From a virus: a stretch of DNA of 64,000 bases. The stretch is from IMG/VR virus record IMGVR_UViG_3300009169_000001, positions 1-64,000 of that record. One strand, given 5' to 3'. This document shows positions 2,305 to 64,000 of the stretch, piece by piece (within the stretch, counting starts at the first letter, position 1; each line of letters opens with the position of its first letter). The position numbers and the translations under genes are program-made. The notes beneath the pieces were generated by a model, which worked only from the letters and a program-made list of their open reading frames with translations, was not told where the DNA came from and did no database searches.

Positions 2305-3096
2305 ATGGCGCTGAAATTATCAGACCTGCAGTTCTTCTACTCGAACGTTACAGCCTCGGACAACCCCATTGGGGATCCCGATACTGGGCTGGGTGGCAGC
2401 ATTTCGACGCACACCAATAAGCGGATCAAGAGTCAGAACGCGACCACCATCACCATTGCGGGCATTACGTTTGTCGATGCTTACGGCAACCCGGAGGGCA
2501 ATGGTAGCCTAGCGTACACGCACAACGGCGGCACTGGGCGGCAGGTGTCATGGCGGCCCGCTGGGCAAGCCACCTATTACGGCGTTGTGGTGGACGCTGG
2601 AGGCACGTTCCTGATCGGGTCCTCATCAGGGTACATGGAAGTCACCGTGGTCGCTGGGTCGCTCCCTGTGTCCGATCAACTGCAGTCGATCACCATCTCT
2701 AACAACCTGCACGCGATCTTTCCACAAGTGGCCGCCACCGACTCTTTGCTGGGGATCACCGAGTACCGCTGCGTGTACATCAAGAACATCTCCGCCACTG
2801 ACGCGGCCCCTGATTGCAAACTCTGGGTAGCCTCGAATACACCCGGCGGTGACACCGTGGACATCGGATTGGGAACCTCGGGCCTGAATGGGATCGAGCA
2901 GGTGATAGCAGACGGCGAGACTGCGCCTGTAGGTGTGACGTTCTCTGCGCCGAGTACGTCCGGGACCGGGCTGGTAGTTGGTAACATTCCTCTCGGGCAG
3001 CATTACGCTTTCTGGATGCGCAGAACCGTCCCGGTAGAGACCCGAGGCACCGTGATCTCCAACGGGGTGGTGTTGGGGCTGTCGGCTACGATCTAA
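2305..3096 (+). CDS. Tail-associated structural protein
   Basis: LGGxxS...EYRCVYIKN...AFWMRRTVP; paralogous to the C-terminal half of 8011..9987. Confidence 0.65.
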   Translation: MALKLSDLQFFYSNVTASDNPIGDPDTGLGGSISTHTNKRIKSQNATTITIAGITFVDAYGNPEGNGSLAYTHNGGTGRQVSWRPAGQATYYGVVVDAGGTFLIGSSSGYMEVTVVAGSLPVSDQLQSITISNNLHAIFPQVAATDSLLGITEYRCVYIKNISATDAAPDCKLWVASNTPGGDTVDIGLGTSGLNGIEQVIADGETAPVGVTFSAPSTSGTGLVVGNIPLGQHYAFWMRRTVPVETRGTVISNGVVLGLSATI

Positions 3097-3125
3097 TGAC
3101 ATTAATTGCACTGGAAAGCTAACGT

Positions 3126-4331
3126 ATGGCATACCCCGTAAAATGGCTTAGTTCAGGTATGGGTAGCGCCCCGGTACTCGGTGACGTCACGCCGGGCGGC
3201 TTGGTCGCTATGTTCCGCGCCTGCCTGATCAATGGATTCGGGGCGCAGACACCCACGACAGTGACCTACTCGGGCGGCAAGATTACCGCTACGTTCAGCG
3301 GCGCTCATGGCTTCCTGCCCTACCAGATCGTGAACATCACCGGAGTAAACGAGTCGGGGTACAACGGTGACCAGCGCATCGACTCCACCACGTCCACGAC
3401 GATCACGATCACCCCCCAGACTGCGCCGACTGTTACACCGGCTACCGGTACGATCAGCATCAAGACGCCGCCGCTCGATGGCTGGTCAGAGACCTATTAC
3501 GACGCAGGCACGCACAACATCGTGTTCTCGCGCACCAACGTGAACGCGACAGATTACAAGATACGAATCTACAACGACATCAGCTACTCGACGAACACCA
3601 CGTACGGTAACTGGGTCGCCAAGGTCGATGTGATTACGAACTGGACGAACATCACCACCTACACCCTGCAGCAGACGGCCTATTTCCCCGGCAGCGCCCG
3701 GTACGCCACTTCGCAGGAGTGGGTTGTCATGGGCGACGACCTGATGTTTGTTTGGCTTAATAGGTTTGCCGCCAATAGCAGAACTTCCGCCTATATTTTT
3801 GGGGACATCAATTCGGTAGTGGGTGGGGATAGGCACCACTGCATAGTGCTGGGCTGCAGCAATGACGGTGCTGCGCGGTGGAATACCAGTGGGGCCTATG
3901 CCACCCACTCAAACCTCGGGACGTTCAAGAGCACGTACCAGCGTTGGCTGATGCGCAACTACGGCGCGGTGGGCGGTATCCTCACCGGCTCAGGTATTAC
4001 TACCGGCACAGGCTCAGTCGTGTGGGATTTGCGTGGTTACTTCGAAGCACGGTTCGGGCAGTACGTCACGTACCCCAACCCGGTGAACAACGGCCTCATG
4101 GTATTCAAGGGGCCGCTGATGATCACCGAGACCAACAACGTGCGCGGCTACATGCCCGGCTTGATGCAGCCGCTGTCAGAGCCGATCACGATTCTGCACA
4201 ACACCATTCTCACGACGTTGCCGGGGCTGGAGGGCATACCCGTGCTTCTCTACAAGGTATCCTATTCGACAAACAACGACGCCGCTGAAACGCTGGGCGC
4301 TTGGCGGCTGGATAACTGGAGAATAGCGTAA
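3126..4331 (+). CDS. Tail fibre / receptor-binding-like protein, paralog 1
   Basis: N-terminus MAYPVKW..GM..AP.L...RACLINGF resembles proteobacterial phage fibre proteins; C-terminal RGYMPG. Confidence 0.65.
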   Translation: MAYPVKWLSSGMGSAPVLGDVTPGGLVAMFRACLINGFGAQTPTTVTYSGGKITATFSGAHGFLPYQIVNITGVNESGYNGDQRIDSTTSTTITITPQTAPTVTPATGTISIKTPPLDGWSETYYDAGTHNIVFSRTNVNATDYKIRIYNDISYSTNTTYGNWVAKVDVITNWTNITTYTLQQTAYFPGSARYATSQEWVVMGDDLMFVWLNRFAANSRTSAYIFGDINSVVGGDRHHCIVLGCSNDGAARWNTSGAYATHSNLGTFKSTYQRWLMRNYGAVGGILTGSGITTGTGSVVWDLRGYFEARFGQYVTYPNPVNNGLMVFKGPLMITETNNVRGYMPGLMQPLSEPITILHNTILTTLPGLEGIPVLLYKVSYSTNNDAAETLGAWRLDNWRIA

Positions 4332-62340: not shown

Positions 62341-63054
62341 ATGGCCATTACAGTAAAGGCGAAAGGAGCGGATACGGTGCACTTACTCCAGATTGTGGGG
62401 CTGGACCCCAAAGCGAACTTGGAGCTATCCAAGCGTGGCATCGTGGTAAACACATCCTTGAAGGATGTGATCTTCTCGCGCAACGGGGTGGAGCTGACAA
62501 GGGCCAAGATGTCGGTACCAATAGCCACGCTGCTGAAGCCCGACAGTTTATCTGCGACGGTGCTTTCGGCCTGCCGGGGCTCGATTGTCAACGCCATGCT
62601 CAAGGCCATGGACATGGCGGAGAAGATCGAGTCCTCAGTCCCCCTGAAGGGGTCATTCGAGGACACCGTGATAAAGGTCAAGAAGCCACCTCAGTACCCC
62701 CCCAAGCTGGAGGCGTGCCCACTGAAGGACGCCACCCAGATGTACCAGCCGGTACGTGGCACCAGCGGTGGATCCAAGTACTTCGTGGTTGCCCTGAGCG
62801 ATGACGTCAAGGTGGCGGCCCGAGTGCAAGGTAATGCGGTGTCGGTCCGGGCGGAAGGTAACCTGACCCCGAAGATCAAGGCGGCACTTGGTAGTGTCGG
62901 GATGGATGACAAGGTGGACTACATGAGCGCACACTTCACGGCCACGCCCAACGCCTCGGCGAAGAAAGTGGTAGGTGCGGTGCTGATCGGTTGCGGGTTG
63001 GACTTCGATACCCCGGTGCCCAGTGTTGATAAAATCCAAGACAAGGGCCAATGA
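62341..63054 (+). CDS. Hypothetical protein
   Basis: RBS GAAGGAG; YQPVRGTSGGSKY motif. Confidence 0.65.
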   Translation: MAITVKAKGADTVHLLQIVGLDPKANLELSKRGIVVNTSLKDVIFSRNGVELTRAKMSVPIATLLKPDSLSATVLSACRGSIVNAMLKAMDMAEKIESSVPLKGSFEDTVIKVKKPPQYPPKLEACPLKDATQMYQPVRGTSGGSKYFVVALSDDVKVAARVQGNAVSVRAEGNLTPKIKAALGSVGMDDKVDYMSAHFTATPNASAKKVVGAVLIGCGLDFDTPVPSVDKIQDKGQ

Positions 63055-63057
63055 TTC

Positions 63058-64000
63058 ATGCTGGTATTCTGGGGCACCGATGATCCCAAGATCATCCATA
63101 AAGAAATACCCGCCCTCGTAAAGTACGACGGACCCAAATCTCTTTCCACCTCCTACAACAGGCCCTCGGTTGAACCGGGCAGCCTGTTGGTTGCCATGGG
63201 GTCAAAGCGTCTGGCGCAGCTGGGTGAGGAGGCGCTCATACCCAAGAACCGGACCGTAGCGTGGTGCCGGTACCCGCGCTTGTTCACGGCACCCGAGGGT
63301 GGTCGCATCATGGTGACCTATGGCCCCTCGGCTAAGGAGTACTCCTACTCCAGCTACGTGCACTTCCGAGCTGACGTGCACCTTGCTGATCGGTTCATGC
63401 GGACCGGCACCTTCTCCCCGGTCCCCGGTAAGTACGAGTATGTCTCCAGCTTCGCTAGTGCAATTAAGTGCATTAGTGATGAGTACCAGAAGACCGGCAA
63501 GCCTGTGGAGGTGGCGCTGGATCTGGAGACGCTAGGCCTCAATCCTTATGACCCCGACGCGTACATCATCACGATCCAGCTGAGCTACGAGGTGGGTCAC
63601 TCCATGGTGATTGCGTTCCACAGCAAGGCGGAGGCCGACCAAGCTCTGAGCGAGTTCAATCCTTTATGGCTGGAGCTGTCATGGCTGCTGGACACCCCCA
63701 TGGTGTCGCTGCGCGGGGCCAACTTCAAGTACGACCTGATCTGGCTGGCCGTCAAGGCCCAGCTGGAGTGCACCAACTTCAAGTTCGATACTATGCTCGT
63801 GGGCAGCTTGCTCGATGAGAACCGGCACAACTCCCTGAACACGCACGCCAAGTGGTACCTCCCTGATCTGGGTGGGTACGACGACAAGTTCGATCTGGAA
63901 CACGACAAGAGCCGGATGGATCTGGCGCTGGAGCAGGACCCTGCCGGGTTCCTGACCTATGCCGGGGGAGACACCGACGCCTGCCTGCAGGTAAGCAAGC
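63058..64000 (+). CDS. polA: DNA polymerase, probably family A, 5' part (degenerate UDG-like N-terminus + 3'-5' exonuclease); truncated by window end
   Basis: Open frame from ATG 63058; ExoI ALDLETLG, ExoII ANFKYD, FDTML..SLLDEN..SL, ExoIII YAGGD; polymerase domain not in window. Confidence 0.8.
   Translation, partial: MLVFWGTDDPKIIHKEIPALVKYDGPKSLSTSYNRPSVEPGSLLVAMGSKRLAQLGEEALIPKNRTVAWCRYPRLFTAPEGGRIMVTYGPSAKEYSYSSYVHFRADVHLADRFMRTGTFSPVPGKYEYVSSFASAIKCISDEYQKTGKPVEVALDLETLGLNPYDPDAYIITIQLSYEVGHSMVIAFHSKAEADQALSEFNPLWLELSWLLDTPMVSLRGANFKYDLIWLAVKAQLECTNFKFDTMLVGSLLDENRHNSLNTHAKWYLPDLGGYDDKFDLEHDKSRMDLALEQDPAGFLTYAGGDTDACLQVSK

Follow-up and report, generated by a model that had tools for sequence, protein, structure and literature searches.

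KorB of the IncP plasmid RK2 acts at 12 OB operators (PMC11790492), a short palindrome dispersed over a large mobile replicon, with some copies closely preceding −35 boxes and others well away from any promoter. The stoperators of Cluster A mycobacteriophages, bound by immunity repressors of the L5 gp71 type, consist of a single short site repeated dozens of times in the phage genome, at junctions between genes and across stop or start codons (PMC9283540); they are asymmetric, read by a monomer and oriented with transcription, which the phage protein is thought to halt genome-wide. The ParB-parS and Noc-NBS systems use a 14- to 16-bp palindrome read by a dimer with a ParB-fold helix-turn-helix. 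Noc sites are dispersed by the dozen over the chromosome. Two large temperate phages, the plasmid prophage P1 (C1 operators) and the Bacillus phage SPbeta (SPBRE repeats), each have a master repressor whose many operators are spread across the genome; these sit at promoters and are neither evenly spaced nor placed in coding sequence, and those of P1 are asymmetric 17-mers. The array reported here, of which a literature search found no published description, differs from the P1 operators in being palindromic, and from the stoperators in being palindromic, usable in either orientation, evenly spaced and often located deep in genes. Its sites are also unlike KorB's 12 operators in number (25–76 in the phage group), in even spacing and, in the present genome, in being mostly intragenic; as opposed to parS and NBS, they are not clustered near an origin and have an unrelated sequence.

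The window analyzed comprised bases 1–64,000 of a 100,394-bp IMG/VR record of an uncultured phage (G000), a record with a 123-bp terminal repeat. With up to 3 mismatches to the consensus GTGCAATTAATTGCAC allowed, the window had 15 copies of the 16-bp palindrome, each with 1–3 mismatches and all at the positions given in the first-pass annotation, whereas dinucleotide shuffles averaged 0.17 copies and reached 3 at most. The complete genome had 25 copies and none at 4 mismatches. A matrix made from these 25 scored every copy at 15.0 bits or more and the next-best genome position at 11.3, while its best score on shuffles averaged approximately 12.8 bits. The copies are demonstrably real, discrete sites. 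The TTAA centre, described earlier as invariant, was present in 15/15 window copies and in 23/25 genome-wide, and the flanks indeed lengthened the dyad, to about 20 bp.

In the window, 8 copies were intragenic and 7 were on stop or start codons, a ribosome-binding site or short intergenic DNA, the same split as initially noticed. Two intragenic copies (11465–11480 and 15343–15358, 2 mismatches each) lie 3.9 kb apart in one 5.7-kb tail gene (10720–16389, 1889 aa), and another (8177–8192, 2 mismatches) in a 658-aa gene of the tail region (8011–9987). The others were located in an ORF ending at 29687 (29425–29440, 1 mismatch), in gene 33130–34125 (34030–34045, 2 mismatches, with the stop 80 nt and the next start 55 nt further on), in the SF2 helicase gene 39289–40593 (39500–39515, 1 mismatch, at about residue 72), in the phosphatase gene 60021–60473 (60417–60432, 3 mismatches, 41 nt ahead of the stop) and in the DNA polymerase I gene 63058–65430 (63458–63473, 2 mismatches, at about residue 135). 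The helicase orthologue of the Stenotrophomonas phage DLP5 carries a copy at the aligned residue. At the gene boundaries, the copy at 3096–3111 (3 mismatches) starts on the last base of the TAA stop of gene 2305–3096, with the next start at 3159; the copy at 22086–22101 (1 mismatch) lies 6 nt past the stop of gene 21556–22080 and opens a 335-bp intergenic stretch; that at 44470–44485 (2 mismatches) contains the TGA stop of the RuvC-like gene 44009–44473; that at 50319–50334 (1 mismatch) starts on the final base of the TAG stop of the large-terminase-like gene 48463–50319; and that at 51598–51613 (3 mismatches) overlaps both the stop of gene 51359–51601 and the GTG start of gene 51598–52014. 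Two more are intergenic, one 27 nt ahead of the start at 23544 (23502–23517, 3 mismatches) and the other abutting a Shine-Dalgarno sequence 15 nt ahead of the start at 55826 (55796–55811, 3 mismatches).

Over the whole genome, 17 of the 25 copies were intragenic, at codon offsets 0 and 1 only, offset 2 never being used because it would read TAA. Shuffling synonymous codons within genes, a check proposed in the first-pass annotation, lowered the count from 25 to 8.5 ± 1.0, close to the boundary copies alone, which means that the 17 intragenic copies were removed by shuffling. In variant forms, the motif is common to a large group of 80–100-kb phages, some of them cultured, with 25–76 sites per genome or one per 1.4–4 kb. 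Its core, GCAAT-NN-ATTGC, is the top repeated word in relatives with only 40–55% polymerase identity and occurs in the cultured phages DLP5, DLP3, Summit, V-YDF132, RcZahn, TM16 and RcTiptonus, the cultured carriers being phages of Stenotrophomonas (DLP5, DLP3 and Summit), Vibrio, Rhodobacter and Rhizobium. Where a DLP5 site had an aligned DLP3 position, it was retained in 34 of 36 cases, with 97.7% identity in the motif letters versus 83.4% in the 150-bp flanks. As judged from this alignment, the sites are under purifying selection in these cultured relatives. Among distant relatives the positions turn over (1 of 19 comparisons matched) and the density is kept.

The spacing had been estimated as 1.3–6.7 kb, with a mean of about 4.3 kb and a CV of about 0.4; recomputed for the window, the gaps ranged from 1279 to 6743 bp, with a mean of 4312 bp and a CV of 0.36. 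With the whole genome taken as a circle, the CV was 0.44 compared to 0.95 ± 0.17 under the null (P ~1e-5), so that the suggested departure from random placement was upheld, and the largest gap was 7.5 kb compared to a null mean of 15.3 kb (P = 1.6e-4). Even spacing at P < 0.01 was found in G000, DLP5, DLP3, Summit, G002, G005, RcTiptonus, RcZahn and V-YDF132.

A phage DNA-binding protein that acts as a pair most likely docks on the palindrome. Of the 150 arm pairs in the 25 copies, 41 were broken, with no compensatory double change, and in 18 of the 25 sites one half was perfect and the other degenerate. Such independent decay of the halves without compensation fits a dimeric protein on DNA better than a hairpin. 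Moreover, the central dinucleotide can change from CA to TG at the same site between DLP5 and DLP3, from which it follows that orientation does not matter.

A subset of the copies is tied to promoters. The copy at 44470 ends 6 nt ahead of the −35 box of a sigma-70-type promoter on the plus strand (44492–44520; TTGACA, 17 nt, CATAAT, with TG before the second hexamer; 11/12 matches) serving the gene 44555–45457, and the copy at 50319 ends 8 nt ahead of TTGACA at 50343. The orthologous promoter in DLP5 has the same 6–9-nt arrangement, which recurs at no fewer than 14 early promoters of the relative G001; in G000, only 2 of the 25 copies are promoter-adjacent. The motif centre in this arrangement lies near −51, which is not a classical repressor position and counts against a role in transcription. 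The early view that the array is unlike an ordinary regulon is qualified by the subset fixed 6–9 nt upstream of sigma-70-type −35 boxes and by several relatives in which most copies are intergenic.

The most probable reader of the motif is the 300-aa product of gene 44555–45457 (plus strand; phrog_17202, the family of DLP5 gp067), whose binding we infer. It is predicted to have an N-terminal ParB/KorB-like helix-turn-helix and a ribbon-helix-helix at residues ~165–215. Every motif-bearing genome examined has a member of the family (8 genomes and 46 cultured records of the group), with a divergent copy in RcTiptonus (E = 5e-15), and a motif copy lies just upstream of the gene in 32 of 52 loci versus 15% expected. 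Since all core genes of the group co-occur with the motif, including five other core proteins of unknown function, co-occurrence does not single out this candidate; fold prediction among these proteins covered the candidate alone. In its AlphaFold model (pLDDT 83), residues 21–168 matched the ParB DNA-binding domain 6s6h (Z 7.7, rmsd 4.5, 116 aligned), Spo0J (Z 7.1) and KorB 1r71 (Z 6.5, rmsd 3.9, 107 aligned), and Foldseek gave probabilities of up to 0.9 for ParB and Noc. These matches are middling, as a widespread arrangement of helices can produce Z values below 8 and Raf1 equals ParB in score. Residues 10–58 of the C-terminal model matched almost solely ribbon-helix-helix proteins (MazE9 with Z 4.1, rmsd 2.1 and 43/43 aligned; also NikR, AmrZ, Arc and pCXC100 ParB). 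The homodimer prediction scored 0.62, in the prediction model's own confidence, versus 0.10 for the best of 3 controls; the mark applied to such predictions was reached by 20/30 proteins solved as one-chain pairs and 1/23 solved as single chains. Contact agreement between runs and partner pLDDT were at least 72% and at least 72, respectively, and the predicted interface takes in the ribbon-helix-helix stretch 165–209. Pfam and PDB sequence searches with the candidate gave no match, and neither a nuclease nor a recombinase domain was detected in it. An apparent association between a ribbon residue and the central dinucleotide of the motif (raw Fisher 9e-6) is without phylogenetically independent support because it involves only 3 state changes on the tree; identical ribbons also occur with different motif centres.

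Our preferred reading, which we hold tentatively, is that the array consists of docking sites of one homodimeric phage protein exerting KorB- or stoperator-like transcription control over the whole genome; the reader and the effect are both what we infer. One dimer would occupy each palindrome, with two helix-turn-helix domains reading the outer arms and the ribbon-helix-helix dimer lying over the centre. Copies 6–9 nt upstream of −35 boxes would tune transcription initiation, and the copy before the candidate's own gene would provide autoregulation. The likeness to KorB extends to the predicted dimeric state, the aligned ParB-type DNA-binding domain and the proposed outcome. Unlike KorB, the candidate carries a ribbon-helix-helix domain and has no ParB N-terminal CTPase domain, the domain that lets KorB slide, and thus a sliding clamp is not expected. 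The likeness to stoperators lies in the location of sites at gene junctions and in the genome-wide role proposed for the protein. Many Vibrio relatives are described as lytic, which makes a role confined to prophage silencing doubtful.

The main rival, which we consider rather unlikely, is genome organization or inheritance, in which the bound protein bridges or condenses the phage chromosome, replicating or episomal, or tethers it so that it segregates, as in a dispersed centromere or a Noc-like array with spacing set by the reach of bridging or spreading. It would account for the even spacing and small largest gaps in many members, for the retention of density as positions turn over and for the copies of G000 and DLP5 lying mostly far from promoters, and it is consistent with the modelled ParB/KorB/Noc-like DNA-binding fold. 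Moreover, DLP5 reportedly persists in phagemid form (PMC5834331, PMC7326821), relatives were found as ~95-kb stand-alone contigs in bacterial assemblies, and G000 lacks an integrase. Against this, G000, including the candidate binder, gave no match to the ParB N-terminal CTPase domain and none to PF13614, the one ParA-type family tested, which sets the phage apart from the KorB, ParB-parS and Noc-NBS systems; G000 and G005 lack the ParBc protein that DLP5 has; 25–76 dispersed sites are unlike known centromeres, which are clustered; and the constant interval between a subset of copies and the −35 box suggests that RNA polymerase is contacted. The parS-like segregation suggested in the first-pass annotation fails for G000 in its classical form on the same two null searches.

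Distinctly less probable is a site of DNA transactions, i.e., nicking, recombination-dependent or lagging-strand replication starts, or the protection and pairing of random ends of a circularly permuted, headful-packaged genome, any end of which would have a site within a few kb. The candidate gene closes a replication and recombination module (DnaB, primase, SF2 helicase, RecA, resolvases and exonuclease), and a palindrome works both ways. Terminal redundancies and Okazaki fragments have lengths of the same order as the 1.4–4-kb spacing. Among the relatives, RcZahn has a circularly permuted genome (PMC8601537). However, the candidate showed no sign of a nuclease or recombinase domain, a recombinase would endanger a genome with dozens of identical targets, and the fixed promoter distance is left unexplained.

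Self-marking, with the motif as the target of a modification enzyme or protective binder separating phage from host DNA, is very unlikely. The motif is conserved over phages of many hosts, and for the two host-scale assemblies with a full list of matches, perfect copies were all on the phage contig, giving no sign of a host regulon. Yet chance alone would place about 0.3 perfect copies in 5 Mb, so this absence does not amount to avoidance; a site every 1.4–4 kb shields very little of the DNA, a methyltransferase shared by all members was not seen, and even spacing would not be needed. That a phage RNA polymerase or sigma factor uses the motif as a directional promoter, with transcription beginning at its downstream edge, is slightly harder still to credit: many copies in relatives follow a terminator or stop codon and precede the next Shine-Dalgarno sequence, but the site is symmetric, with a centre that flips between DLP5 and DLP3, the intragenic G000 copies include some deep in genes, the proteins scanned yielded no phage RNA polymerase, and a symmetric version would drive antisense RNA as well. 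Reading by a host protein, which could explain why the arms are conserved across very different phages, is scarcely credible with hosts spanning Vibrio, Stenotrophomonas, Rhodobacter, Rhizobium and possibly other phyla, and with perfect copies limited to phage contigs in those assemblies. Finally, a hairpin in RNA or DNA (as a cruciform or as a signal for RNA processing, stability or termination) has next to nothing left to recommend it: the consensus could make a 6–9-bp stem with a 4-nt loop and every copy is transcribed because all genes of G000 share one strand, but the arms are broken without compensation and most copies pair a perfect half with a degraded one.

The initial idea of a lattice for a dimeric protein along the whole chromosome is thereby supported in part, by the independent half-sites, selection, recurrent even spacing and the candidate homodimer; the functions listed with it did not gain such support. 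Under transcription control by docked homodimers, the copies at gene junctions and inside long genes would be bound obstacles or anchor points no more than about 5–7 kb apart, and the whole one-directional 100-kb transcription map would thereby come within the protein's reach. Counting against this reading, the even spacing and the positional turnover suit a genome-wide process limited by distance at least as well as they suit regulation of one gene at a time.

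A pattern search of the window returned exactly the 15 copies of the 16-bp palindrome that the first-pass annotation had reported, each with 1–3 mismatches to the consensus, while dinucleotide-preserving shuffles of the window contained 0.17 copies on average. The full record of the phage (G000; 100,394 bp, 58% G + C) ends in a terminal repeat of 123 bp, so the assembly can be regarded as complete and circular; about 140 of its 143 predicted genes lie on the + strand. The whole genome harbors 25 copies, with none at four mismatches. A weight matrix derived from these copies gave, over the full genome, 25 sites of at least 15.0 bits and a next-best place of 11.3, and the top score in shuffled sequence was, on average, around 12.8. 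The copies are a discrete family and not the tail of a distribution. Seventeen of them are intragenic, and the remaining eight sit on a stop or a start codon or in a short stretch between genes, the non-coding share of the genome being 5.6%. The intragenic copies occupy two of the three possible codon offsets; the third is unused because the centre would then read as a TAA stop. Swapping synonymous codons within each gene reduced the count from 25 to 8.5 ± 1.0, which shows that the intragenic copies are no by-product of protein sequence or codon usage.

The even spacing claimed in the first-pass annotation held up as well. The gap figures calculated by hand (1.3–6.7 kb, mean 4.3 kb, CV about 0.4) were right for the window, and along the circular genome the gaps were far more even than under random placement (CV of 0.44 against 0.95 ± 0.17, P about 1e-5), with the widest gap being 7.5 kb as opposed to the expected 15.3 kb (P = 1.6e-4). 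The 5.7-kb tail gene alone contains two copies, 3.9 kb apart. Even spacing was found again in most of the cultured and IMG/VR relatives tested, and the mean site interval across the phage group was 1.4–4 kb. With the search patterns applied, the spacing was not significantly even in Rhizobium phage TM16 and in the IMG/VR relatives G001, G004 and G009.

Relatives could be reached only via proteins, and near and distant DNA searches of the phage collection with pieces of the window gave no match. By capsid protein, the nearest are the Stenotrophomonas phages DLP5, DLP3 and Summit (64% identity), followed by Rhodobacter phage RcZahn, Rhizobium phages and the VHS1/SIO-2-like Vibrio phages. The motif was present in every capsid-linked cultured relative tested: 36 copies in DLP5, 34 in DLP3, 27 in Summit, 25 perfect ones in Vibrio phage V-YDF132, 27 in RcZahn, 26 in TM16 and 57 in Rhodobacter phage RcTiptonus. 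A DNA polymerase search brought up 23 IMG/VR loci (38–55% identity), nearly all of them with the motif; whole records of relatives carried 34–68 copies each, and the most over-represented 12-mers of each genome were pieces of it. Among the matches listed in an IMG/VR scan for the 14-mer, true relatives were mixed with isolated chance matches. The invariant core across the lineages is GCAAT-NN-ATTGC, with the outer bases and the central dinucleotide varying by lineage: the centre is TA in G000, G001, G002 and G004, CA/TG in the DLP5-like phages and CG in RcTiptonus, G replaces T ahead of the core in G005, and the inner arm is slightly altered in TM16. Bacterial assemblies, namely one Azospirillum isolate and a number of metagenome-assembled genomes, contained relatives as well. 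For two of these the match list was complete, and there perfect copies were restricted to the phage contig. There is thus no sign that a host regulon uses the site; this does not amount to the depletion in the host that the first-pass annotation proposed to check, as chance alone would give some 0.3 perfect copies per 5 Mb.

In four of the 16 public runs, all represented by contigs, the phage itself was near-identical: outside a conserved domain, 20 kb contained four isolated single-base changes and two deletions of one base each. Nearly identical copies of 44001–64000 were also seen in freshwater sediment, soil and wetland metagenome contigs from several studies (2017–2025). Bases 56.7–57.7 kb draw contigs of other organisms because of the conserved pyruvate phosphate dikinase (PPDK)-like domain encoded there. 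The product of the respective gene, 56781–58832, is a truncated PPDK-like protein (PPDK_N plus mobile His domain), which all relatives have kept; a motif copy lies at the same place of the swivel-domain coding sequence in DLP5 and G001 and is absent there from G000. Among the other genes, 59349–59624 encodes a 91-aa protein with a CsrA-like C-terminal motif (PF02599, 2.7e-7), conserved in three relatives, and 47415–47738 a 107-aa protein with DUF2958 (3e-37). For the three adjacent large genes at 24768–29223 (562, 542 and 379 aa), PHROG searches gave no match, and none of the four relatives under comparison has a homologue.

Selection on the sites was seen between the phages DLP5 and DLP3. Around the sites 17% of positions differ, yet 34 of the 36 alignable sites are retained, and identity over the 12 specified letters of the motif reaches 97.7%, most of the sites being intragenic. 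At some of these sites the centre changes from CA to TG, TA to CA or TG to CG with the arms unchanged, which indicates a functionally symmetric site whose centre is read loosely. A conserved site position in distant orthologues was rejected: intragenic sites in orthologous genes matched in position in 1 of 19 comparisons, the sole match being the SF2 helicase of G000 and DLP5. Density and spacing are conserved among distant relatives, and positions turn over.

The two arms of the palindrome gave an indication of what reads it. The 25 copies contain 150 arm pairs, 101 of which are the consensus pair, 8 G–T and 41 broken, with no compensatory double change among them; in 18 of the 25 copies one half is perfect and the other degraded. 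Such separate variation of the halves without compensation is characteristic of a protein with two-fold symmetry that reads a pair of half-sites. A hairpin or stem in RNA or DNA was rejected on account of the 41 broken pairs and the lack of compensatory changes. The palindromes are, with good probability, a protein-binding array.

In three of the relatives most copies are intergenic, namely 52 of 68 (G001), 43 of 55 (G002) and 24 of 35 (G004). These typically begin a few bases past the upstream stop codon, and some themselves provide the stop. In the early small-gene region of the three genomes the motif ends 6–9 nt upstream of a sigma-70-type -35 box, at a nearly constant distance of 61–79 nt from the start codon, and at least 14 early promoters of G001 have the motif just upstream of the -35 box. 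In a second setting the motif adjoins a Shine-Dalgarno sequence, sometimes directly after an intrinsic terminator; the annotation of Summit has, downstream of the capsid gene, a terminator, then the motif, then a ribosome-binding site. In G000, copies 44470 and 50319 belong to the first setting (6–8 nt upstream of -35 boxes), the promoter at 44492–44520 (TTGACA, 17 nt, CATAAT, with an upstream TG) starting 6 nt past copy 44470. Copy 55796 represents the second setting, and altogether 23 of the G000 copies are not directly upstream of -35 boxes.

Several further features of the control regions were recorded. The genes at 50600–50767 and 50779–51009 are the only convincing minus-strand genes of the G000 genome and have back-to-back promoters beside them (minus strand 51084–51056, plus strand 51078–51106), so that 50600–51110 looks like a lysis/lysogeny-type switch; the small protein encoded at 50600–50767 has a 49%-identical homologue in G001. 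Several strong sigma-70-type promoters of the small-gene region (51078–51106, 53009–53037, 53640–53668 and 56000–56028) have a common TG-extended CATAGT/TACAGT -10 box. At 81.5–82.7 kb of G001 (sequence L036, 1500–2700) there is a repeat-rich stretch of little coding capacity. Some 1.1 kb of it holds seven copies of the motif, between which lie other repeats, namely roughly five tandem 12-mers and a number of palindromes of the AACATGTTAA type. The cluster, possibly an origin, a centromere or a control region, has no equivalent in G000.

The gene sets of five genomes share a core of replication, recombination, packaging and head genes. Three regulators annotated in DLP5 were set aside as the common reader of the motif because each is missing from several motif-bearing genomes (tblastn at 1e-3, a test at the sequence level only): the ParBc protein (DLP5 gp107), the MerR-like protein (40643–41059 in the window) and the zinc-ribbon "transcriptional repressor" (59605–60003 in the window; DLP5 gp140 family). 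PDB sequence searches with five other core proteins of unknown function gave nothing usable. The candidate reader is a 300-aa protein of family phrog_17202 (DLP5 gp067, 47761–48564 in MG189906), encoded at 44555–45457 directly downstream of copy 44470 and its promoter. The family is present in all eight genomes compared and in 46 cultured phage records of the same group, with a divergent copy in RcTiptonus found by profile search. A large protein collection yielded 167 homologues, all of them unnamed and free of Pfam domains, and many located on 80–120-kb contigs. The motif lies directly upstream of the candidate gene in 32 of 52 IMG/VR loci, compared to 15% expected from the local density. 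In several relatives (L035, 16465–17619; G002, G004, G009 and TM16) the homologues have 100–150 extra N-terminal residues, a low-complexity acidic/alanine-rich stretch with a short helix-extension-helix-like motif; the G000 protein is without this extension.

Pfam, PHROGs function and PDB sequence searches placed the candidate in no named family, and Atlas gave weak leads only, including "ParB HTH" at 0.83. In its AlphaFold model (pLDDT 83), residues 21–168 align to the DNA-binding domains of ParB (6s6h, VIA-align Z of 7.7), Spo0J (7.1), KorB (1r71, 6.5), P1 ParB (4.3) and SopB (4.0), values below 8 that are not decisive and may reflect a common helical arrangement; Raf1 scores similarly. Foldseek returned ParB and Noc with a probability of up to 0.9 but an E of about 1. 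The protein starts straight with the predicted helix-turn-helix domain, with no N-terminal CTP-binding part ahead of it. When the C-terminal part was modelled by itself (pLDDT 82.6), nearly all matches were to ribbon-helix-helix proteins, and over their full length: residues 10–58 of this model superimpose on MazE9 (Z of 4.1, rmsd of 2.1, 43 of 43 residues aligned) and also on NikR, AmrZ and Arc, the Z values being low because the domain is small (about 45 residues). Pfam had no match for the putative ribbon-helix-helix part. The homodimer prediction passed with a score of 0.62 as opposed to 0.10 for the best of three controls, which is a model confidence and not a measurement; among proteins of solved structure, 20 of 30 one-chain pairs and 1 of 23 single chains reach the same mark. 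The runs share at least 72% of contacts at a partner pLDDT of at least 72, and the predicted interface spans residues 165–209, including the ribbon-helix-helix stretch. Over the 52 loci, a ribbon histidine went with TA-dominant centres in 19 cases and with others in 12, and a lysine in 0 and 18 cases, respectively (Fisher 9e-6). The link was dropped as support, since the family tree contains only three state changes and too few independent pairs; identical ribbons also pair with different motif centres. The 44555–45457 protein is a tentative reader of the motif, at slightly less than even chance.

A genome-wide control of transcription in the manner of KorB or of stoperators, exerted by a phage homodimer on each palindrome, comes close to an even chance in our estimate, and an effect of the sites on transcription as such is rated somewhat below even. 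The homodimer, probably of the 44555–45457 protein, would sit on each palindrome. At promoter-proximal copies, centred near -51, it would modulate RNA polymerase, its own promoter included; at gene junctions and inside long genes the bound dimer would act as an obstacle or an anchor. Selection for at least one copy per 5–7 kb would keep the whole one-directional genome within reach. On RK2, KorB binds OB sites and reaches promoters by sliding over as much as 1.5 kb (PMC11790492). The array resembles this system in its dispersed palindromes, part of them just ahead of -35 boxes and part remote from any promoter. In contrast, KorB is a CTP-dependent sliding clamp with KorA as a clamp-locking partner, whereas G000 has no ParB_N domain: PF02195 gave zero matches in six frames of the whole 100-kb genome and did match control genomes. 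The stoperators of Cluster A mycobacteriophages (PMC9283540), at which the prophage immunity repressor stops elongation, are asymmetric and fixed in orientation relative to transcription, unlike the present palindrome, whose centre flips between DLP5 and DLP3. The array therefore falls outside the KorB and stoperator systems, given the missing CTPase clamp domain and the symmetry of the sites. By analogy, it could be grouped with other operators that lie scattered over a mobile element and are read by its regulator, as a new version of this known arrangement. It is unusual in its strict palindromy, in the even spacing written into coding sequence and in its conservation over a very broad phage group. 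Literature searches gave no match to the exact motif-variant strings, and the DLP5, DLP3 and RcZahn papers make no mention of the repeat.

The first-pass annotation had favored a lattice of sites for a dimeric protein acting along the chromosome. In a further reading the lattice itself would be the functional unit, a distance-limited process needing a bound dimer at least every few kb whatever gene is there. Such a need would let selection write sites into coding sequence and keep their density while positions drift, and the process might be coating or bridging of the genome from nucleation points, the formation of topological or transcriptional domains, or, in a permuted genome, the protection and pairing of its random ends; we consider it unlikely. 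Genome organisation or inheritance, the main rival to the transcriptional reading, is also unlikely: the even spacing, the turnover of site positions and the life of DLP5 as an episome, as reported (PMC5834331, PMC7326821), speak for it, but G000 has no detectable ParA/ParB machinery. The one ParA-type family searched, PF13614, had no match in the genome, nor did a tyrosine integrase. Moreover, ParABS sites are clustered in one or a few centromere regions, as opposed to 25 sites spread genome-wide at a CV of 0.44, and the N-terminal CTP-binding domain of the ParABS ParB was not found in G000. A role in a DNA transaction, such as nicks, replication or recombination starts or end handling of the permuted genome, is quite improbable.

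The array is a case in which selection on DNA within protein-coding genes favors the spacing of sites and not their position. If the transcriptional reading is true, a large and widespread group of 80–100-kb siphoviruses, some of them suggested as therapeutic phages for Stenotrophomonas and for Vibrio in aquaculture, would run the whole chromosome via one palindrome and one unannotated protein. A function would then be assigned to the "hypothetical protein" family phrog_17202, and the long-range control of the KorB/stoperator type would extend to a fusion of ParB-like helix-turn-helix and ribbon-helix-helix domains without CTPase. If, instead, the lattice itself is what functions, a large group of tailed phages would organise the whole genome on a principle for which no counterpart has been described. 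The system is testable in cultured phages, namely DLP5, DLP3, Summit, the VHS1/SIO-2-like phages, RcZahn and RcTiptonus.
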